Part shown: positions 7,065 to 29,933 of the stretch, piece after piece
Layout: each line of letters opens with the position of its first letter
How positions within the stretch are numbered: position 1 is the first letter of the stretch
Sequence record: OR352939.1
Strand: one strand, 5' to 3'
DNA length: 64,000 nucleotides
Source: Escherichia phage AV109
Translations under genes and position numbers: made by a program
Notes under the pieces: generated by a model
Database searches by the model: none
What the model saw: only the letters and a program-made list of their open reading frames with translations
Told to the model about the DNA's origin: nothing

Positions 7065-7094
7065 ACTATATCATAGTCCTACTTAGTTGTAAAC
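7065..7094 (-). promoter_or_regulatory. Putative early promoter (GTTTAC -35, TATAGT/ATATAG -10)
   Basis: gtaaac 7089-7094; conserved GATAGGACTACTATATCATAGTCC module. Confidence 0.4.
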
Positions 7095-7106
7095 ACTTTT
7101 ATGAAA

Positions 7107-7664
7107 TTAAAGATGAAGATACCACCCGTTGTAGTTGCTCTTGCGGACGATTTTCTTTAGGTCTTCATGGTCTCCCACGAACTTTATAGAATAAGAGAAG
7201 ACGTCAGGTGAGGTTTCTTTGACATCTAATATAATAATGCAATCTGCGACTCGATGGTTCAAGAAGGGCCCTATATTGATTCCATTACCACCAGGATAAT
7301 CACCACTGTATCCTGTGGTAACCGAAATCCATTTAGAATCTATCTGGTGCGTCTTGACTTCGACACGCAACCCGCAGTATTTAGGATGAGCTAACACGTC
7401 CCATGCATACGTGTACGGGTCTTCTACGTCTTCATTACCTTTATTAACATATCCATCTAGCCAATTTGCTACTACATACTCTGCAAAGACTGCAACCTTA
7501 CAACGTCGAACAACGTCTTCTTTTATTTGACCTGGATCTTGTTTCAACGAGTACCGAGCAGTGTCAGCAATCTTCACCTTCATTTCACTAGTCAAAAACT
7601 CATTCGACAGGATAAATGTCGGAAGATTCTTCAGCCTCAACAGCCCCAAGTTCGTCTTTACCAT
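7107..7664 (-). CDS. denB: Endonuclease IV DenB-like (position and size as T4 denB)
   Basis: Start placed at internal Met (MVKTNLGLL) with AGAGGT RBS, giving 185 aa as in T4; the track ORF 7107..7727 would overlap the upstream gene; assignment mainly by synteny between ndd and rIIB. Confidence 0.5.
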   Translation of the reverse strand: MVKTNLGLLRLKNLPTFILSNEFLTSEMKVKIADTARYSLKQDPGQIKEDVVRRCKVAVFAEYVVANWLDGYVNKGNEDVEDPYTYAWDVLAHPKYCGLRVEVKTHQIDSKWISVTTGYSGDYPGGNGINIGPFLNHRVADCIIILDVKETSPDVFSYSIKFVGDHEDLKKIVRKSNYNGWYLHL

Positions 7665-8864: not shown

Positions 8865-11078
8865 TTATTTGGCTGCTTCCACAGCCTTCATGAATTTAAC
8901 GATTTGAGCGACCTGTTCTTTTGAAAGAGTACCACGTCGTCCCATGTATTCTGACACAATATGATAATTGGTTTCGAATTCAATAACCATTTTATCATCA
9001 TTATCGTAAGCATTATCTTTAAGCTTATCGAAAATTTTAGCACACAATTCTAACTTCTTATTCAGGTCTGTATTAGTAGCACCTGCGAATCGATTCCATC
9101 CCCAACGATTATTTACTGTTGAGAGTTTTGCAAAATCTTTACTGATTTCTTTGTTTTTAGAGCTAAAATACTTACTAAGGAAGTTAAGCTCTTCATTACG
9201 AGTAATATGATTCAAATAAGGTTGAGCTCTACGACTTGGTGATACATACTCATCATAATCCGCTTTATCAATTAGCGTAATATAGTCATTAATTGATTTT
9301 TCGAACAAGCATTCTACTTCACCAAGTTTACGAACTTTCTTAGCAATCTGTGGACGAACTACAGTGAACTCTTTAATACCCGACAAATCAGCAATACGGG
9401 TCAAGAAATTGGAGTCATAGTTCAACCAACCTTTATCTGCGTCAAGACATTCAGCATTAGAACGATTACGAACTATAGCATAACCTTGGATTTCATCTGC
9501 TTCACTTGCCGGAATAAAGAGATCTTCTGATACCCAAACATCGTTTTCATTCTTAAAGAATCGATGAGCACTTGGCGATTTAGGACGAGGCTCATTAGTC
9601 CGTTTCTTGACTTCAATCCATGGCTTAACGATTTGTAAAAGCTCTGAAGTCTTGTACATGTTAATGTTGTCGCCATCAAAGATAACTTTAAGGCGTTCCA
9701 GAAGTTTCATTGCATCTTCGTCTGTAGGGTCAACGAATAGTATGCTTTTACCAAAACCGCGCGGAACTTTACCAGTTAATTTAACATCGTCTTTAGACAT
9801 TTCAATTGAATTAAGAGCTCGCATTAATGGAACGCGTCCCTTAACGTCGTCAATAACAATTTCAACATTTTTAATGTTAATGCCAATCAGACTGTTAATT
9901 GAAATAGTCGCCGATGAGCTACCACTTTCACGAATACGACGAAGACGAGGGGATTCAACTATATCGTATACTACGCCAAGATTACACCACTCAGGCCCCA
10001 TTTTAAAACGTTTGTACAACTCAGAATAAGTTAGTTGTTCTTTAGAGTATTTCAGTGATTCAATATTAGACCCGGCCTTTTCCATGTATTTACGAGCGGT
10101 ATAGCCAAGAGAATCAATTTCACGGAACACATGACGTGGGTATTTACAATCAATCCATTTCTTAGAATCTTCAGCGAACAATTTAGCATCGATTTCTGCA
10201 ACGCGTTTATGGATATTTGCTACTGTACGTTTATCAAATGACAATGCTTCACGAGACGGGGCTACATCTAGTTCACCCATAGGGAATTTAATATAAGCTG
10301 TAGTGCATCGCGTCATCATCCATGTTTGTTCTTTAATAACACTTCCGATTGGATATACAATACCACCATAAACAGCCATGATATTACCACGTTCACCCCA
10401 TGGAGCTTCCTTGGCCAAATATACATCGTCAAATTCTGGGAAGTATTTAATATCTTTAACACCACGAACTTCTGCAATATCACCTAGAGGACGCATAACA
10501 TAAGCAATTTCGGATGCGAACTTTTCAAAATCTTCTGGGTTAACAGGCACAACTACTTCAACGCCGGTCCGGTCATCAGGACCCATCTTATCTACGAAGG
10601 TTGGCTTAATCTGTGGACCCGTGTCATCTTGGTAGATTACGTAACCACGAACTTCACCGTTGTGATAAGACGTAAGGTTAAACGTATCGGTATATGCTAA
10701 TGGAGCTTTAGAGCCGAGTCCGAATCCACCAATGAAATCGTTACTCGATGTTTTAGTTGAAGCAAAATATGAGTTATAGATTCCTGGCTCTTTGTCATTA
10801 CCTCGAATGGTGAAATCACTCATACCCGGTCCAAAATCACGAACTACAAAACGTGGGTCTAAACGACCTGGAGCCTGAACAATAAACTTATCAGTGCAAC
10901 CATTAAGAATTTGCCCATCAATACAGTTTGTGATTAATTCACGTACACAAGCCAATTCTTTGTTTGTATAAAGGTCATTAGACAAAATCTTATAAACTTT
11001 GCTATTGCCTTGAATAGTAAATGCTGTGCTCTTACCGCCTGAACCAATAATCGTTTCTTTAGCCGTTTCGATAATCAT
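8865..11078 (-). CDS. rIIA: rIIA protein (GHKL-type ATPase domain at N-terminus)
   Basis: 737 aa; N-terminal ATPase-like motif (ELITNCIDGQ, DFGPGMS); adjacent to rIIB as in T4. Confidence 0.8.
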   Translation of the reverse strand: MIIETAKETIIGSGGKSTAFTIQGNSKVYKILSNDLYTNKELACVRELITNCIDGQILNGCTDKFIVQAPGRLDPRFVVRDFGPGMSDFTIRGNDKEPGIYNSYFASTKTSSNDFIGGFGLGSKAPLAYTDTFNLTSYHNGEVRGYVIYQDDTGPQIKPTFVDKMGPDDRTGVEVVVPVNPEDFEKFASEIAYVMRPLGDIAEVRGVKDIKYFPEFDDVYLAKEAPWGERGNIMAVYGGIVYPIGSVIKEQTWMMTRCTTAYIKFPMGELDVAPSREALSFDKRTVANIHKRVAEIDAKLFAEDSKKWIDCKYPRHVFREIDSLGYTARKYMEKAGSNIESLKYSKEQLTYSELYKRFKMGPEWCNLGVVYDIVESPRLRRIRESGSSSATISINSLIGINIKNVEIVIDDVKGRVPLMRALNSIEMSKDDVKLTGKVPRGFGKSILFVDPTDEDAMKLLERLKVIFDGDNINMYKTSELLQIVKPWIEVKKRTNEPRPKSPSAHRFFKNENDVWVSEDLFIPASEADEIQGYAIVRNRSNAECLDADKGWLNYDSNFLTRIADLSGIKEFTVVRPQIAKKVRKLGEVECLFEKSINDYITLIDKADYDEYVSPSRRAQPYLNHITRNEELNFLSKYFSSKNKEISKDFAKLSTVNNRWGWNRFAGATNTDLNKKLELCAKIFDKLKDNAYDNDDKMVIEFETNYHIVSEYMGRRGTLSKEQVAQIVKFMKAVEAAK

Positions 11079-11090
11079 GTTTTTCTCTCA

Positions 11091-11291
11091 TCACAAGTTA
11101 CGTTTAAAAATTTCTGCCACTTCGAGAAGTTCTTCTTTAGTAGCTGTGTCGGTTTGTATTTTATATCGAATTTCCTTAAAGCGTTCTTTAAAGGCTTCAG
11201 CTGATTCGATATCAAAAAATCTTTGGATAAGCCGGAATTCCCGGAGCACTGCTTTATCAAAAAGTTCCAAGTCCACGTTATATGTTCTCAT
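11091..11291 (-). CDS. Hypothetical protein (rIIA.1 position)
   Basis: Start placed at ATG 11291 (MRTYNV); the track start at 11321 is a GTG lying inside a 16-bp inverted repeat. Confidence 0.35.
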   Translation of the reverse strand: MRTYNVDLELFDKAVLREFRLIQRFFDIESAEAFKERFKEIRYKIQTDTATKEELLEVAEIFKRNL

Positions 11292-11311
11292 AATATTCTC
11301 TTCAGTAGATT

Positions 11312-11372
11312 CCTGAGGCACTATTACTAAAGACCATATAATCTATCATCTTATGTGTAATAGTGCCTCAGG
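11312..11372. repeat. 16-bp perfect inverted repeat (cctgaggcactattac / gtaatagtgcctcagg) with 29-nt loop
   Basis: Arms at 11312-11327 and 11357-11372 are exact reverse complements; intergenic between glycosyltransferase gene and rIIA.1. Confidence 0.7.
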
Positions 11373-11383
11373 CGATTCAGGAT

Positions 11384-12484
11384 TTACGCTGTGAAGATTT
11401 TATCCCACATCGCAACAACTGCATCTCGATTATACTTCTTCCATACTGCTTCAGCACGTTTAACTCGAGCTTCGTATGTGTCAGTGAATTCTAATACAGC
11501 TTTTGTGTAAAGCGCAACTACTTCTTTCTTAGGAGTAGAGGAATCAATTTCTACACGCACAGTATCTGGGTCGTATTCAAATGTCGCATGAGGATAATCC
11601 TTAAAAACTAACTGGATTACAGGGACACCTTTAGAGATGGCTTCAATAGAACTATTCTCTACCGTACCTGTGTCAGGACACGTATTAATAAGTGCTTTAG
11701 CTGTTTTAAGACGTTCCATGATTTCACTATGTGGAGCATCAATAATAACAGGATACTTAGCCGGTGGTGCCCATTTACTAGGACAGTATCCTGCACCATT
11801 TTCGCCTAGTGCTTTAATCGCTTCAAGAGCAACATCAGTGCGACGCATTTTAGTGTCATAACGTTGGGCACTAATAATCAAATCAGTTGCTGGGAGAACT
11901 TCTGGCTTTTCGGTCAAACAAATAACCGGGTAGTCATCATGTTCAAATAATGGATTTTCACGCCAGTAATCATAATCAATGCTATCAGTAAGAGCTGAAG
12001 TCATATGGCAATATTTACGTTCAAATTCACGGAATGCTTTAGTAGGAGCATAGCTCTTACCACCGTATTTGTGGGTAAGAATAGTTTGTTTCCAAATTTC
12101 TACAATACCGCGAGATACAGGCTCAAATGGAGTTGCCATAAAATTTCTATGAACACTGGATAAACCGGCATCTTTAATTGCGTTAACAGTTAGTTTAGTC
12201 GGTTCCATAGTAACAACAAAATCGTATTCATGGATGCCGGCTAGTTCAACAATCTTACGAGCCATAGTATAACTCATACCTAGACTGAATTTAGTCAGAT
12301 GACCAACAGGATGATGATTAACTTTCCAGTCACCAAACGTGTCATTATCAAAGCCGATATAATCAATATCAGCACCGATGGACACAAGATATTTCAACAC
12401 ATTTAAATGTACTGCTTCAAGGCCACCTTGTACACGGTCAGGATTAAATGGGACTGCACGAGATGGGATAAACATAACTTTCAT
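11384..12484 (-). CDS. GT-B fold glycosyltransferase (GT4-like); candidate DNA hydroxymethylcytosine glycosyltransferase
   Basis: 366 aa; C-terminal nucleotide-sugar binding signature resembling GT4 E-x7-E (TGTVENSSIEAISKGVPVIQ); not present at this position in T4. Confidence 0.5.
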   Translation of the reverse strand: MKVMFIPSRAVPFNPDRVQGGLEAVHLNVLKYLVSIGADIDYIGFDNDTFGDWKVNHHPVGHLTKFSLGMSYTMARKIVELAGIHEYDFVVTMEPTKLTVNAIKDAGLSSVHRNFMATPFEPVSRGIVEIWKQTILTHKYGGKSYAPTKAFREFERKYCHMTSALTDSIDYDYWRENPLFEHDDYPVICLTEKPEVLPATDLIISAQRYDTKMRRTDVALEAIKALGENGAGYCPSKWAPPAKYPVIIDAPHSEIMERLKTAKALINTCPDTGTVENSSIEAISKGVPVIQLVFKDYPHATFEYDPDTVRVEIDSSTPKKEVVALYTKAVLEFTDTYEARVKRAEAVWKKYNRDAVVAMWDKIFTA

Positions 12485-12510
12485 AATTAAGCCTTATTAA
12501 AATTAAAATG

Positions 12511-12528
12511 AAGCTCCCGAAGGAGCTT
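12511..12528 (-). other. UUCG-tetraloop hairpin (AAGCUCC-UUCG-GGAGCUU) between HNH endonuclease gene and glycosyltransferase gene
   Basis: Inverted repeat with cgaa loop on plus strand; overlaps stop codon of the HNH gene. Confidence 0.4.
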
Positions 12529-13339
12529 AGGACATCCAACACATTTTATAACCTTTGCAGGTTCTGTTAGGATTATTTAATGCTTTCAATATATTAGAAG
12601 ACCCTATATCTAAATACTCCCTTAATTCATAAAGATAGTTAAAATCAATAGTTTCACCTGTTTTTACACTTGTGATTCTTATAGGCCTTCTTTCATATTT
12701 AGATTTATACAACTCTCTAGTCTTAGCTTTAGTTTCTTCTGACCTAGGAGTGTATGGTTTAAATCCTTTTGTTTTAAATGTTTCCATTCTTGATTTAGTT
12801 ATTTTATCCTGGTGTTCTTTTGTTTTTACAGGTGCTTTTCGCCCATTCTCCCAAGATAACTTGTTGGCCTGTATTATTTTATCTATTGCTTCTTGCGTAT
12901 GAGTTTTACCATAAAATGGATTTAATTCGCCTATACGTTGTGAAGCAATATGTGACATTAATTCTCTTGTTGCTTTAGTATGTTTTTTACCTTTAAATGG
13001 ATTGCCATTTTTAGCAATCCATTCTTTCATAAATCTAGAGTGCTCTTTAGAGAATTCTTGTTTAAGCCAATCATAATCTCTAGAATTTCTAGCTCCCATG
13101 TAAAAAGCTCTAATAGCCATAAGCATAGAACGGTTCTTATGAATTTTATAAAGCAATAAATGGGCGATAAAATGCTCTCTAGGGGTCATTTTAACTAGAT
13201 TTGATTTAGCATTACTCCCACCCATAGATTTAGGCAAAATATGGTGAGTTTCAGTATAATTAGGAATAGTGCTGCGGTTTTTAGCCGCAGCGATAAGTTT
13301 ATCATAAATTTTACGATAATTCATTATCCTAGCATCCAA
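12527..13339 (-). CDS. HNH homing endonuclease with NUMOD3-like repeats (Mob-like)
   Basis: 270 aa; HHILPKSMGG...N core and repeated NPFYGK.HT / NPFKGKKHT modules; occupies the mobA slot beside gene 39. Confidence 0.65.
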   Translation of the reverse strand: MDARIMNYRKIYDKLIAAAKNRSTIPNYTETHHILPKSMGGSNAKSNLVKMTPREHFIAHLLLYKIHKNRSMLMAIRAFYMGARNSRDYDWLKQEFSKEHSRFMKEWIAKNGNPFKGKKHTKATRELMSHIASQRIGELNPFYGKTHTQEAIDKIIQANKLSWENGRKAPVKTKEHQDKITKSRMETFKTKGFKPYTPRSEETKAKTRELYKSKYERRPIRITSVKTGETIDFNYLYELREYLDIGSSNILKALNNPNRTCKGYKMCWMS

Positions 13340-15162
13340 TCTTTACGGAGTTCAGGGTCGTTACCCATGAGCATTTCAAATAGTTCTTTCCAATTTTCAG
13401 GAAGTTTAACTACGTCGTACACAGGGTTTTGAATCATTTCTTTATATTCATCCCGCTGAAGTGAGCCCAATCCCTTGATGTATCGAATACTATGCTTAGG
13501 CAGTGTATCTTTAACTTCTTCATACTCAGCTACAGTATAAAACCATTTTTGAGTTTTGCCAATTTGTGCAATAATTACAGGCGTTTTAACAAAGCGAATA
13601 CGTCCTTGTTCAAACAATTCAGGCCAATTACTAAAGAAAGCAAGCAAAGCCGGATAAATACTTCCAAGGCCGTCATGATCGGCATCGGTCATAATTGCAA
13701 TATTACGGTAGTTCGTATTCTCTGCCTTTTCACCAAGAATAAGACCCGTGATAGCACAGATATCAAAGAGCTCTTTGTTCTTCATCATATCGGCATATGA
13801 CATACCCCAGCTATTCATCACCTTACCACGTAATGGGAATCCGCCGTGTAGTTCACGGTCACGAACATCAATGAGATAACCAATTGCCGAATCACCTTCT
13901 GTTAAAAACAATGTCGTATCTGCATCTTTACCACATTGGTTAGCTTTAATATGCTTATGAACCTTAGCTTTAGTTGCCTTTTTAGCTGCTTTAGTTTCTG
14001 CAGCCTTTTCTGCTGCCAATTTACGAGCTAATGCGGCTTCAATTATAGGCATTAAAACTGCTTCAGAATTCAAAATATTTTTTGCCAATTTTTTTGTATC
14101 TAATTTAATATGCGTCCGAATTTCGCCATAAGGACTTGTTAAACGCTCTTTGGTTTGGGAATCAAAACGAAGGTTCTTCATTCCACGAACGAACATTAAG
14201 AGAGTGAGACATTCCTTGATTCGCGCTTTAGTCACGTCGATTTTATATTTGCGTTTAATAGCCGGAATTAATTCTTCGCTAATGTCGTCCATCACACATT
14301 CAATGTGATGACCACCGTTTTTGGTATGGATGTTATTCACATAAGTTAAATGACGGAAGCCATCTGGTGACCGTCCAATGGCAATAGAGCATCCGTCTTG
14401 TTCTTGAATGATGGTCTCTTCATCAAATTGTTTAGCAAACTTCTTAAAGTTACCTTGAATCTTTTTGCCATTAAATTTAAATTCAATACCAGGATAAACG
14501 ACCGCCAATGTTTGGAGCCGGTCTATAGTAATATCTTGGTATATTTTTTCAAATTGATTCATTTCAAAATGTGAGAAATCAGGAATAAACTCGACCTTAG
14601 TACCGTTGTTTTTAGACGGCTTAGATTTCCAAGAAATATTATCAGCGTTATTAGAACAATTAACGGTCAATTCATTTTTACCATCTGAAGTAGTGCCAAC
14701 AAAAGAGACAGAAAAAATATTTGTTAATGAAGAACCGACACCGTTTTGTCCACCCGTAACACGTTCTTTGTCGTCACCAAAGTTGCCACCGGCTTTTGTA
14801 CGTGTCCACGCCGCAACTGGTCCTGGAATTTCTTCTCCTTCAGGAGTAATAACTGTTTCTTGAGGAATACCTCGACCATTATCTTCAACAGTCACTTTAT
14901 TAGAATTTAAATCAATACTAACGGAAATTTTATTAGCATATTTGAAATTGGTTCGAATAGCTTCGTCTACTGAGTTGTCAATAATTTCATCAATTAATTT
15001 GAGAACACCTGCAACATATTTAACCTTTTTAAATTCACCGAATAGGAAACGTTCTTGTTCTTCATTGGCAACACTTCCAATATACATGCCAGGACGCTTC
15101 AAACAATGCTCTTTATCAGATAGCATTTCAATTTTATTATCAATCATTAGATTTTCTCTCAA
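13324..15162 (-). CDS. 39: DNA topoisomerase II large subunit gp39 (GyrB-like), unsplit 39+60
   Basis: 612 aa continuous ORF with GyrB-type ATPase N-terminus (HCLKRPGMYIGS, DNGRGIP) and TOPRIM region; no separate gene 60 or bypass gap. Confidence 0.9.
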   Translation of the reverse strand: MRENLMIDNKIEMLSDKEHCLKRPGMYIGSVANEEQERFLFGEFKKVKYVAGVLKLIDEIIDNSVDEAIRTNFKYANKISVSIDLNSNKVTVEDNGRGIPQETVITPEGEEIPGPVAAWTRTKAGGNFGDDKERVTGGQNGVGSSLTNIFSVSFVGTTSDGKNELTVNCSNNADNISWKSKPSKNNGTKVEFIPDFSHFEMNQFEKIYQDITIDRLQTLAVVYPGIEFKFNGKKIQGNFKKFAKQFDEETIIQEQDGCSIAIGRSPDGFRHLTYVNNIHTKNGGHHIECVMDDISEELIPAIKRKYKIDVTKARIKECLTLLMFVRGMKNLRFDSQTKERLTSPYGEIRTHIKLDTKKLAKNILNSEAVLMPIIEAALARKLAAEKAAETKAAKKATKAKVHKHIKANQCGKDADTTLFLTEGDSAIGYLIDVRDRELHGGFPLRGKVMNSWGMSYADMMKNKELFDICAITGLILGEKAENTNYRNIAIMTDADHDGLGSIYPALLAFFSNWPELFEQGRIRFVKTPVIIAQIGKTQKWFYTVAEYEEVKDTLPKHSIRYIKGLGSLQRDEYKEMIQNPVYDVVKLPENWKELFEMLMGNDPELRKDWMLG

Positions 15163-29878: not shown

Positions 29879-29903
29879 TTTGTTCTCCAGTAGTTGATAG
29901 GTC

Positions 29904-29933
29904 TATAATAACACAACTACTGGAGAAGTAAAC
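29904..29933 (-). promoter_or_regulatory. T4 early-type promoter (GTTTAC-N17-TATTAT)
   Basis: tataat 29904-29909, gtaaac 29928-29933. Confidence 0.5.

Follow-up and report, generated by a model that had tools for sequence, protein, structure and literature searches.

In the early mRNA of phage T7, RNase III processing hairpins are located between genes (R0.3, R0.5, R1.1 and others). These hairpins are the closest analogy to the element described here, an inverted repeat ahead of rIIA.1 in a 64,000-nucleotide stretch of Escherichia phage AV109 (record OR352939.1), which we call the window. As in T7, an irregular hairpin of about 60 nucleotides would be placed in the intercistronic spacer of a polycistronic phage mRNA, with a lower stem, a small internal loop, an upper stem and no U-tract, and a 3´-terminal hairpin would be left on the upstream message. 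However, the hairpin, which belongs to phages of the genus Mosigvirus, shows neither sequence similarity to the T7 sites nor an Rfam match.

Several types of hairpins have been described in T4-type phages, among them the PeSL and PmSL cassettes (Arbiol 2010, PMC2839356; Comeau 2014, PMC4122927). In PeSLs, a sigma-70-like early promoter (TTTACW-N17-TAYWAT) is located just downstream of a short stem-loop, and many similar copies are present (PMC4122927). The Mosigvirus hairpin is likewise a stem-loop beside a Shine-Dalgarno sequence (SD) and an ATG and borders a gene that varies among T4-like genera, but it has no promoter, a 16-bp stem, a 29-nucleotide loop and only one copy. In the hairpins of T4 e, soc, 49 and I-TevI, the helix includes the SD or the AUG, and the structure contains a promoter (PMC3014915). 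They resemble the present hairpin in that a long stem precedes a gene on read-through transcripts in a T4-type phage, whereas the SD ahead of rIIA.1 is outside the helix, about 7–8 nucleotides past the stem, and a promoter is missing. Finally, the split-TIR hairpins of T4 genes 25 and 38 are located between the SD and the AUG of one gene (PMC3014915). There as here a hairpin shortens the effective distance of two translation signals, but the Mosigvirus hairpin is located between the stop codon of one gene and the SD of the next.

Structure and genomic setting of the inverted repeat

Over a 1.7-kb query the window is 100% identical to Escherichia phage AV115, a Mosigvirus (RB69-like T4-type phage). 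All genes surrounding the hairpin are encoded on the minus strand (Table 1). The function of the upstream cistron, RB69 ORF003c, as hmC-arabinosyltransferase has been proposed (PMC6024577). The terminator-like hairpin at the upstream edge of this gene (AAGCTCCTTCGGGAGCTT, then CATTTTAATTTT) is identical in sequence in RB69, where it is located between the gp60plus39 stop and ORF003c. Further upstream, the insertion of the HNH gene can be followed at 13324–13345: ...TGGATGTCCTAA, originally the end of the topoisomerase gene, now closes the endonuclease ORF, and the topoisomerase has ...GATTGGATGCTAGGATAA as its present end.

Table 1. Features of the locus, with positions in the window
Feature	Position	Strand	Remarks
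rIIA	8865-11078	-	next after rIIA.1
Downstream cistron rIIA.1, 66 aa from ATG at 11291	11091..11291	-	Pfam T4_RIIA1 E = 3.7e-30; RB69 annotation
Whole intergenic region, 92 nt	11292..11383	-	11 nt + hairpin + 20 nt up to the rIIA.1 AUG
3´ arm of stem, mRNA sense, GUAAUAGUGCCUCAGG	11312..11327	-	carries most variation among relatives
Lineage-specific dinucleotide	11315..11316	GA on + strand	mRNA-sense UC vs CU in relatives
29-nt spacer	11328..11356	-	in RNA predicted to fold to inner mini-helix
5´ arm of stem, mRNA sense, CCUGAGGCACUAUUAC	11357..11372	-	nearly invariant among relatives
Upstream cistron, RB69 ORF003c-type putative hmC-arabinosyltransferase, 366 aa	11384..12484	-	homology to RB69 ORF003c
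UUCG-tetraloop hairpin, T-rich tail, then SD + ATG; transferase upstream edge	12511..12528	-	terminator-like
HNH/NUMOD3 homing endonuclease gene	12527-13339	-	inserted at last codons of gp60plus39
Fused topoisomerase gene 60plus39	13324-15162	-	

A first-pass annotation of the window had described a perfect 16-bp inverted repeat with a separation of 29 nucleotides, located between the glycosyltransferase stop and rIIA.1, and had called such a stem unusual compared to the short UUCG hairpins found elsewhere in the window. The description is accurate in each of these points. The arms, CCTGAGGCACTATTAC at 11312–11327 and GTAATAGTGCCTCAGG at 11357–11372, are complementary at 16 of 16 positions, lie where the annotation had placed them and are situated inside the 92-nucleotide gap between the transferase ORF and the rIIA.1 ATG; that the repeat is exceptional is documented below. 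In mRNA sense, the transferase stop is followed by 11 nucleotides, the hairpin, about 7–8 nucleotides, a weak SD (GAAGAG, 11298–11303) and the rIIA.1 AUG (11289–11291).

The stem has a G+C content of 50%. The predicted fold consists of the 16 bp, a 4x2 internal loop and 5+3 bp, the lower stem having one mismatch in most relatives. In the spacer, positions 11348–11352 are predicted to pair with 11330–11334 and 11344–11346 with 11336–11338, leaving an apical loop at 11339–11343. With this small upper helix in the spacer, the element as a whole amounts to about 24 bp of irregular helix.

When the window was simulated 100 times with a first-order Markov model, the maximum length of a perfect arm (loop of up to 80 nucleotides) was 10–14 bp and never 16. 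The repeat is also the longest perfect inverted repeat with such a loop in the AV115 genome, the others having 12–14 bp, in a scan that was run on an approximate reassembly of about 167 kb. The folding energy calculation proposed in the first-pass annotation gave a clear answer: in a 70-nucleotide sliding RNA fold over both strands of the window the hairpin ranks first with -35.3 kcal/mol (mean -9.9, sd 3.9), the second best fold reaching -28.1 kcal/mol. The 121-nucleotide fold that contains it has a z-score of -6.3 against shuffled sequences. The inverted repeat is therefore confirmed as real and beyond chance. A comparison with Rfam yielded mir-200 as best match, with 22.5 bits versus a gathering score of 86, and thus a generic hairpin match.

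A second inverted repeat of similar geometry, with 13-bp perfect arms and a 28-nucleotide spacer, is found at 1262–1315 inside a minus-strand ORF of 90 amino acids (1180–1452), yet its arm length is in the chance range, since 11% of the simulations reach at least 13 bp.

Distribution and insertion history in Mosigvirus

A 101-nucleotide query detected the element in 154 phage records, all of them of Mosigvirus type and all at this locus, with 94–100% identity; six further carriers are IMG/VR or metagenome contigs. The first-pass annotation had suggested a search for the repeat elsewhere in the genome, and this revealed a single-copy element: both a 16-mer search and a covariance model over the whole AV115 genome found this site only. 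The covariance model, made from ten variants, detected no copy in the loci of other T4-like genera, and in viral and metagenome collections all other occurrences of the 16-mer arm were single chance matches that lacked a partner arm.

In other T4-like genera, 13 loci with upstream sequence could be compared. Their rIIA.1 is 64–76% identical and begins with an ATG that shares nucleotides with the topoisomerase stop codon (ATGA). Because of this overlap there is no gap, and gap and hairpin are both absent at rIIA.1 in all 13 loci. It follows that the transferase gene together with its flanking spacers is an insertion relative to those genera. The first-pass annotation had placed the repeat at the boundary of a glycosyltransferase insertion, which holds true relative to other T4-like genera, where the hairpin marks the downstream edge, but not within Mosigvirus, where the gene is fixed. 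No relative was found to carry the repeat without the transferase gene, a finding that the first-pass annotation had listed as part of what would count against its reading. The transferase homologues in Acinetobacter phages (42%) are located near genes 40/41, and downstream of them there are only short UUCG hairpins, so that a co-transfer of hairpin and transferase was rejected.

The overlap of the rIIA.1 start with the stop of the topoisomerase gene (39/60), seen at about position 2500 of loci L007–L021, was present in every non-Mosigvirus locus examined, which implies an ancestral translational coupling that was interrupted by the Mosigvirus transferase insertion. It might thus be possible that the hairpin is a coupling device: it would fold away 61 of the 92 nucleotides and thereby bring ribosomes that terminate at the transferase stop near the weak rIIA.1 ribosome-binding site. 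The ATGA overlap in all 13 loci fits this idea, as do the weak SD and the order of stop codon, 11 nucleotides, hairpin, 7–8 nucleotides and SD, and the split-TIR hairpins that shorten the SD-AUG spacing in T4 genes 25 and 38 offer a precedent (PMC3014915). Nevertheless, we regard a coupling function as quite unlikely. It would require conservation of the stem only, yet the loop is constrained too, and a predicted outer 6-bp helix between the SD and the transferase 3´ end is no better than background. The same applies to a complementarity between loop and start region (11331–11341 with 11278–11288, 10 of 11 positions), which was rejected as its duplex energy of -9.7 kcal/mol is equalled by 32% of real-sequence segments.

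Three further roles connected to translation were discarded. The hairpin does not sequester the ribosome-binding site, since SD and AUG are both outside the helix. A 15-codon ORF starting in the loop has no SD, and reading of the sequences showed that its amino acids are altered by the variants of the relatives, speaking against a leader peptide. A gene-60-style bypass or fusion was rejected in the same way, since the two ORFs are in different frames without matching take-off and landing codons.

It had also been suggested that the repeat is a scar or target of the recombination or homing event that introduced the gene cassette. This was not borne out: the element is single-copy, lacks a target-site duplication and is present with and without the HNH gene. 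The latter is located about 1.2 kb from the repeat, at the end of gp60plus39; it is present in AV111, phi25-307, SQ17 and phiC120 and absent from RB69, ST0 and AlbertHofmann, and the repeat is found in all of these phages, ruling against a homing-endonuclease target or scar. A miniature inverted-repeat mobile element was rejected as well, because of the single copy and because the flanks (...GTAGATT and CGATTCA...) are not a clean target-site duplication.

Shigella phage JK45 contains a perfect 503-bp tandem duplication (locus L129, 1877–2882) resulting in two hairpin copies. It covers the first 16 nucleotides of rIIA.1, the entire 92-nucleotide gap and the last 411 nucleotides of the transferase gene, with end-points away from the repeat. 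This duplication could be real or an assembly artefact.

Sequence constraint and origin of the perfect stem

Site variation was counted in 11 full-length sequences, with the third codon positions of both flanking genes as reference. Variable sites amount to 7 of 92 in the gap and 6 of 61 in the hairpin, whereas 122 of 434 vary among the flanking third codon positions (Fisher P = 8e-6 and P = 0.0016, respectively), and the nucleotide diversity of the gap is 0.021 versus 0.07–0.15. At the level of these sequence comparisons, purifying selection on the hairpin is shown, with the loop about as conserved as the stem. Part of the low diversity could stem from a generally slow-evolving regulatory spacer. 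The 42-nucleotide gap on the other side of the transferase gene (12485–12526) is almost invariant, with a nucleotide diversity of 0.004, and thus less variable than the 92-nucleotide gap.

The only change seen in the 5´ arm is one C>U in SQ17, resulting in a G·U pair. In the 3´ arm positions 11312, 11315, 11316 and 11320 are variable. Among the variants read, the spacer has four variable sites (11343, 11344, 11355 and a loop C>U in PhAPEC2/ST2), and all of them are unpaired or keep a wobble pair. The variation at unpaired or wobble-tolerant loop positions spares the fold, which we count in favour of an mRNA stem-loop.

Covariation was not detected: none of the 24 pairs is changed on both sides among 10 distinct variants, with about 3% sequence variation available. 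The reason is that relatives of intermediate divergence do not exist; the identity of the transferase drops from 95% to 43% and that of rIIA.1 from 97% to 76%. Without such double changes, the structure is not proven by evolution. Uncompensated changes are present as well, with an A·C mismatch in RB69 (-24.6 kcal/mol) and the loss of the terminal pair in TH58/ST2.

The two strands differ in their folding potential. In all six variants tested the mRNA-sense fold is better than the antisense fold, by 2.3–11.4 kcal/mol. Two SQ17-specific transitions keep pairing as G·U in mRNA sense only (-26.0 versus -14.6 kcal/mol). The DNA hairpin is weak in most relatives (-7 to -12 kcal/mol). Taken together, the stability in mRNA sense and the weak DNA hairpin modestly favour a role at the RNA level, on the transcribed strand.

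These data also bear on a possible function as DNA site, either for recognition by a dimeric DNA-binding protein or as cruciform or recombination hotspot at the module boundary. The symmetric 16-bp arms at a junction of gene modules would suit such a site, the loop contains a perfect TATAAT on the plus strand, and the JK45 duplication spans the gap. However, a 29-bp spacer is atypical of an operator, and in addition to their weak DNA hairpin most relatives have two DNA mismatches in the arms. No -35 element matches the TATAAT and no promoter was called. The JK45 end-points are not at the repeat, and the repeat is indifferent to the presence of the homing endonuclease gene. On these sequence features a DNA-level function appears improbable. 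A replication origin was rejected separately, T4 oriA being located near soc and not near rIIA.1.

Only four of the 154 records, those matching the 101-nucleotide query with at least 99% identity, have the perfect stem; the two that are listed, AV114 and AV118, match with 100%. The longer query of 1.7 kb matches AV115 with 100% and AV116 with 99.8% identity. The other relatives read (16 of 16) have 14 Watson-Crick pairs, one G·U and one A·C pair; their mRNA-sense 3´ arm carries GUAAUAGUGCCCUAGG and they fold with -24.6 to -28.5 kcal/mol. The dinucleotide at 11315–11316 converts these G·U and A·C pairs to G-C and A-U, thereby making the stem perfect. In a local neighbour-joining tree of 3.1 kb, the window is nested in a clade with ST0, SQ17 and phiC120/phiE142, which all have the imperfect form, and the sister clade has an imperfect stem as well. 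Since the imperfect form is found in the own clade and in the sister clade, the change from CU to UC is derived. The comparison of relatives thus indicates that the perfect 16/16 pairing is a recent state.

Positions 11315–11316 are the only window-specific substitutions in the 92-nucleotide gap, out of 30 in 3139 aligned nucleotides. Independent substitutions would strike precisely these two unpaired positions, and with the bases that complement them, with a probability of about 1e-5 to 4e-5. The perfecting change is best explained by a templated quasi-palindrome correction (template switch) or by selection for pairing; it is also possible that the dinucleotide was imported from an unsampled relative. 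Ripley and de Boer reportedly gave the first description of quasi-palindrome template-switch hotspots, in T4 rII. At such hotspots, an imperfect repeat is likewise perfected when several clustered nucleotides are replaced by a copy of the opposite arm (PMC7202029, PMC8794818), and the creation and maintenance of perfect hairpin stems by template switching has been documented (PMC8794818, PMC7202029). This comparison accounts for the origin of the perfect form in this lineage only and not for the function of the element, and the event itself would be one deduced from the comparison of relatives.

Window-specific substitutions form seven adjacent pairs, six of which are found together at 11981–12156, inside the transferase gene. 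This clustering points to a short patch acquired by recombination with an unsampled relative, or to mutation events that affected several nucleotides at once.

The repeat could also be a largely neutral palindrome. It could have arisen as a by-product of the placement of the transferase gene or by a later template-switch inverted duplication, and could then have been kept and now and then re-perfected by templated mutation instead of selection for a function. The lack of covariation, the uncompensated mismatches that persist in most lineages and the confinement to one genus agree with such a history, and the perfecting dinucleotide event is typical of template switching (PMC8794818). Against it, variable sites are 3–4 times rarer than at neighbouring synonymous-type positions, the stem is still at -24.6 kcal/mol or below across clades that are about 8% apart in this region, and the strand asymmetry of the wobble pairs favours RNA. 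We consider neutrality unlikely.

Possible role in mRNA processing or stability

A termination structure was among the possibilities named in the first-pass annotation, and it did not hold up. Neither strand has a U/T run 3´ of the stem (tails AAUCUACUG in mRNA sense and CGAUUCAGG in antisense), the loop comprises 29 nucleotides where a terminator would have 3–8, and a terminator scan made no call; an intrinsic terminator was therefore rejected. Promoter scans found no sigma-70-type, MotA-box or late promoter in or beside the hairpin. A promoter in the loop was likewise rejected, as neither strand has a MotA box plus -10, TATAAATA or an acceptable sigma-70 pair. The best candidate inside the hairpin found by eye was ATTACA-N17-TATGGT, which matches at about 8 of 12 positions, and the TATAAT of the plus strand loop stands without a -35 element. 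With PeSL cassettes the hairpin shares the location at an indel boundary and the SD and start codon that come next, but a promoter directly downstream of the stem-loop is missing and the element is single-copy, so that this identity was rejected, too.

A terminator or a PeSL-type promoter cassette that would mark a mobile single-gene module is therefore very hard to reconcile with the locus and highly improbable. It is true that the hairpin precedes an SD and an ATG at the border of an insertion in a T4-type phage, and PeSL-like cassettes do exist in this genome (for the definition of PeSLs see PMC4122927). Yet there is no T/U run, and no sigma-70-like promoter, MotA box or late promoter is found between the stem and the ATG or in the loop; the hairpin is unlike the promoter-hairpin cassettes of the genome in sequence and is present once. 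The sequence thus largely refutes this explanation.

The promoter-in-hairpin cassette is present in two copies, one in the window at 29883–29927 (minus strand) and one in AV115 at about 135.07–135.11 kb (locus L134, ~7067–7111). Their consensus is gTTTACT-TCTCC[AG/TC]TAGTTG-TGtTA[T/C]TAT-AGACCT[A/G]T-CAACTA[CT/GA]GGAGAA-N4-6-ATG, and a compensatory pair of changes in the stem distinguishes one copy from the other. In this cassette, a T4-type early promoter (-35 TTTACT, 16-nucleotide spacer, extended -10) extends across the 5´ arm and the loop, the stem comprises 14 perfect base pairs, and the Shine-Dalgarno sequence (GGAG) of the next gene downstream is part of the 3´ arm. The SD would be hidden in read-through transcripts, whereas a transcript started at the embedded promoter would have no 5´ arm. 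The cassette resembles the PeSL cassettes and the design of T4 gene e and I-TevI.

Strong matches to T4-type early promoters are absent from the minus strand between 7093 and 17751, and the site upstream of rIIA.1 should thus lie inside a long polycistronic transcript. We found no published transcript maps for RB69 or any Mosigvirus. We infer that the hairpin is transcribed within a long unit and has a role in processing or stability. As main reading we propose, with a probability of roughly 45%, that the repeat forms a stem-loop between two cistrons of the mRNA and takes part in its processing or stability. It would be a cis-acting element in Mosigvirus, placed on the polycistronic pre-replicative mRNA (minus-strand sense) where the hmC-arabinosyltransferase cistron gives way to rIIA.1-rIIA. 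The 16-bp lower stem and the small upper helix, together about 24 bp with -25 to -35 kcal/mol, would fold 11 nucleotides past the transferase stop codon and end about 7–8 nucleotides ahead of the rIIA.1 SD.

Such a stem-loop would act post-transcriptionally, as a folded barrier or as a processing site. It might block 3´-to-5´ exonucleases and thereby shield the transferase message, or it might be a substrate of an RNase III-type double-strand-specific endonuclease, for which some two turns of almost unbroken RNA duplex are expected, and both activities may be combined. Either of them would result in separate fates for the transferase half and the rIIA.1-rIIA half of the transcript. The conservation of the loop, which equals that of the stem, is not required by a simple exonuclease barrier and speaks against this version. 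T4-type phages are not known to depend on RNase III or to use it for mRNA maturation.

A more specialised function is also conceivable, in which the hairpin would be a dedicated regulatory RNA of the arabinosyl-hmC module. As a site cleaved by a double-strand-specific nuclease of the host or the phage, it would set the ratio or timing of arabinosyltransferase versus rIIA.1/rIIA expression; alternatively, it would be a small-RNA precursor, from which a stable structured RNA of about 65 nucleotides is released to act in trans. According to a review on T4, T4-type phages have yielded no functionally characterised riboswitch or small RNA acting in trans (PMC3014915), and we regard a dedicated regulatory RNA as doubtful.

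The hairpin at 11312–11372 is real, conserved and previously undescribed, although the kind of element is unsurprising, and the interpretation given in the first-pass annotation finds partial support. If it has no function, it is merely a genus-specific intergenic hairpin. It provides a clean natural example of how a clustered dinucleotide change can turn an imperfect palindrome into a perfect one. No other local structure in the scanned sequence is as stable, and the hairpin is located directly behind the putative DNA-arabinosylation gene of RB69-like phages and ahead of rIIA.1-rIIA, and it is worth preserving in the engineering of these therapeutic-candidate phages. If the hairpin controls message stability or translational coupling, it would offer a handle on the expression of a DNA-hypermodification enzyme.
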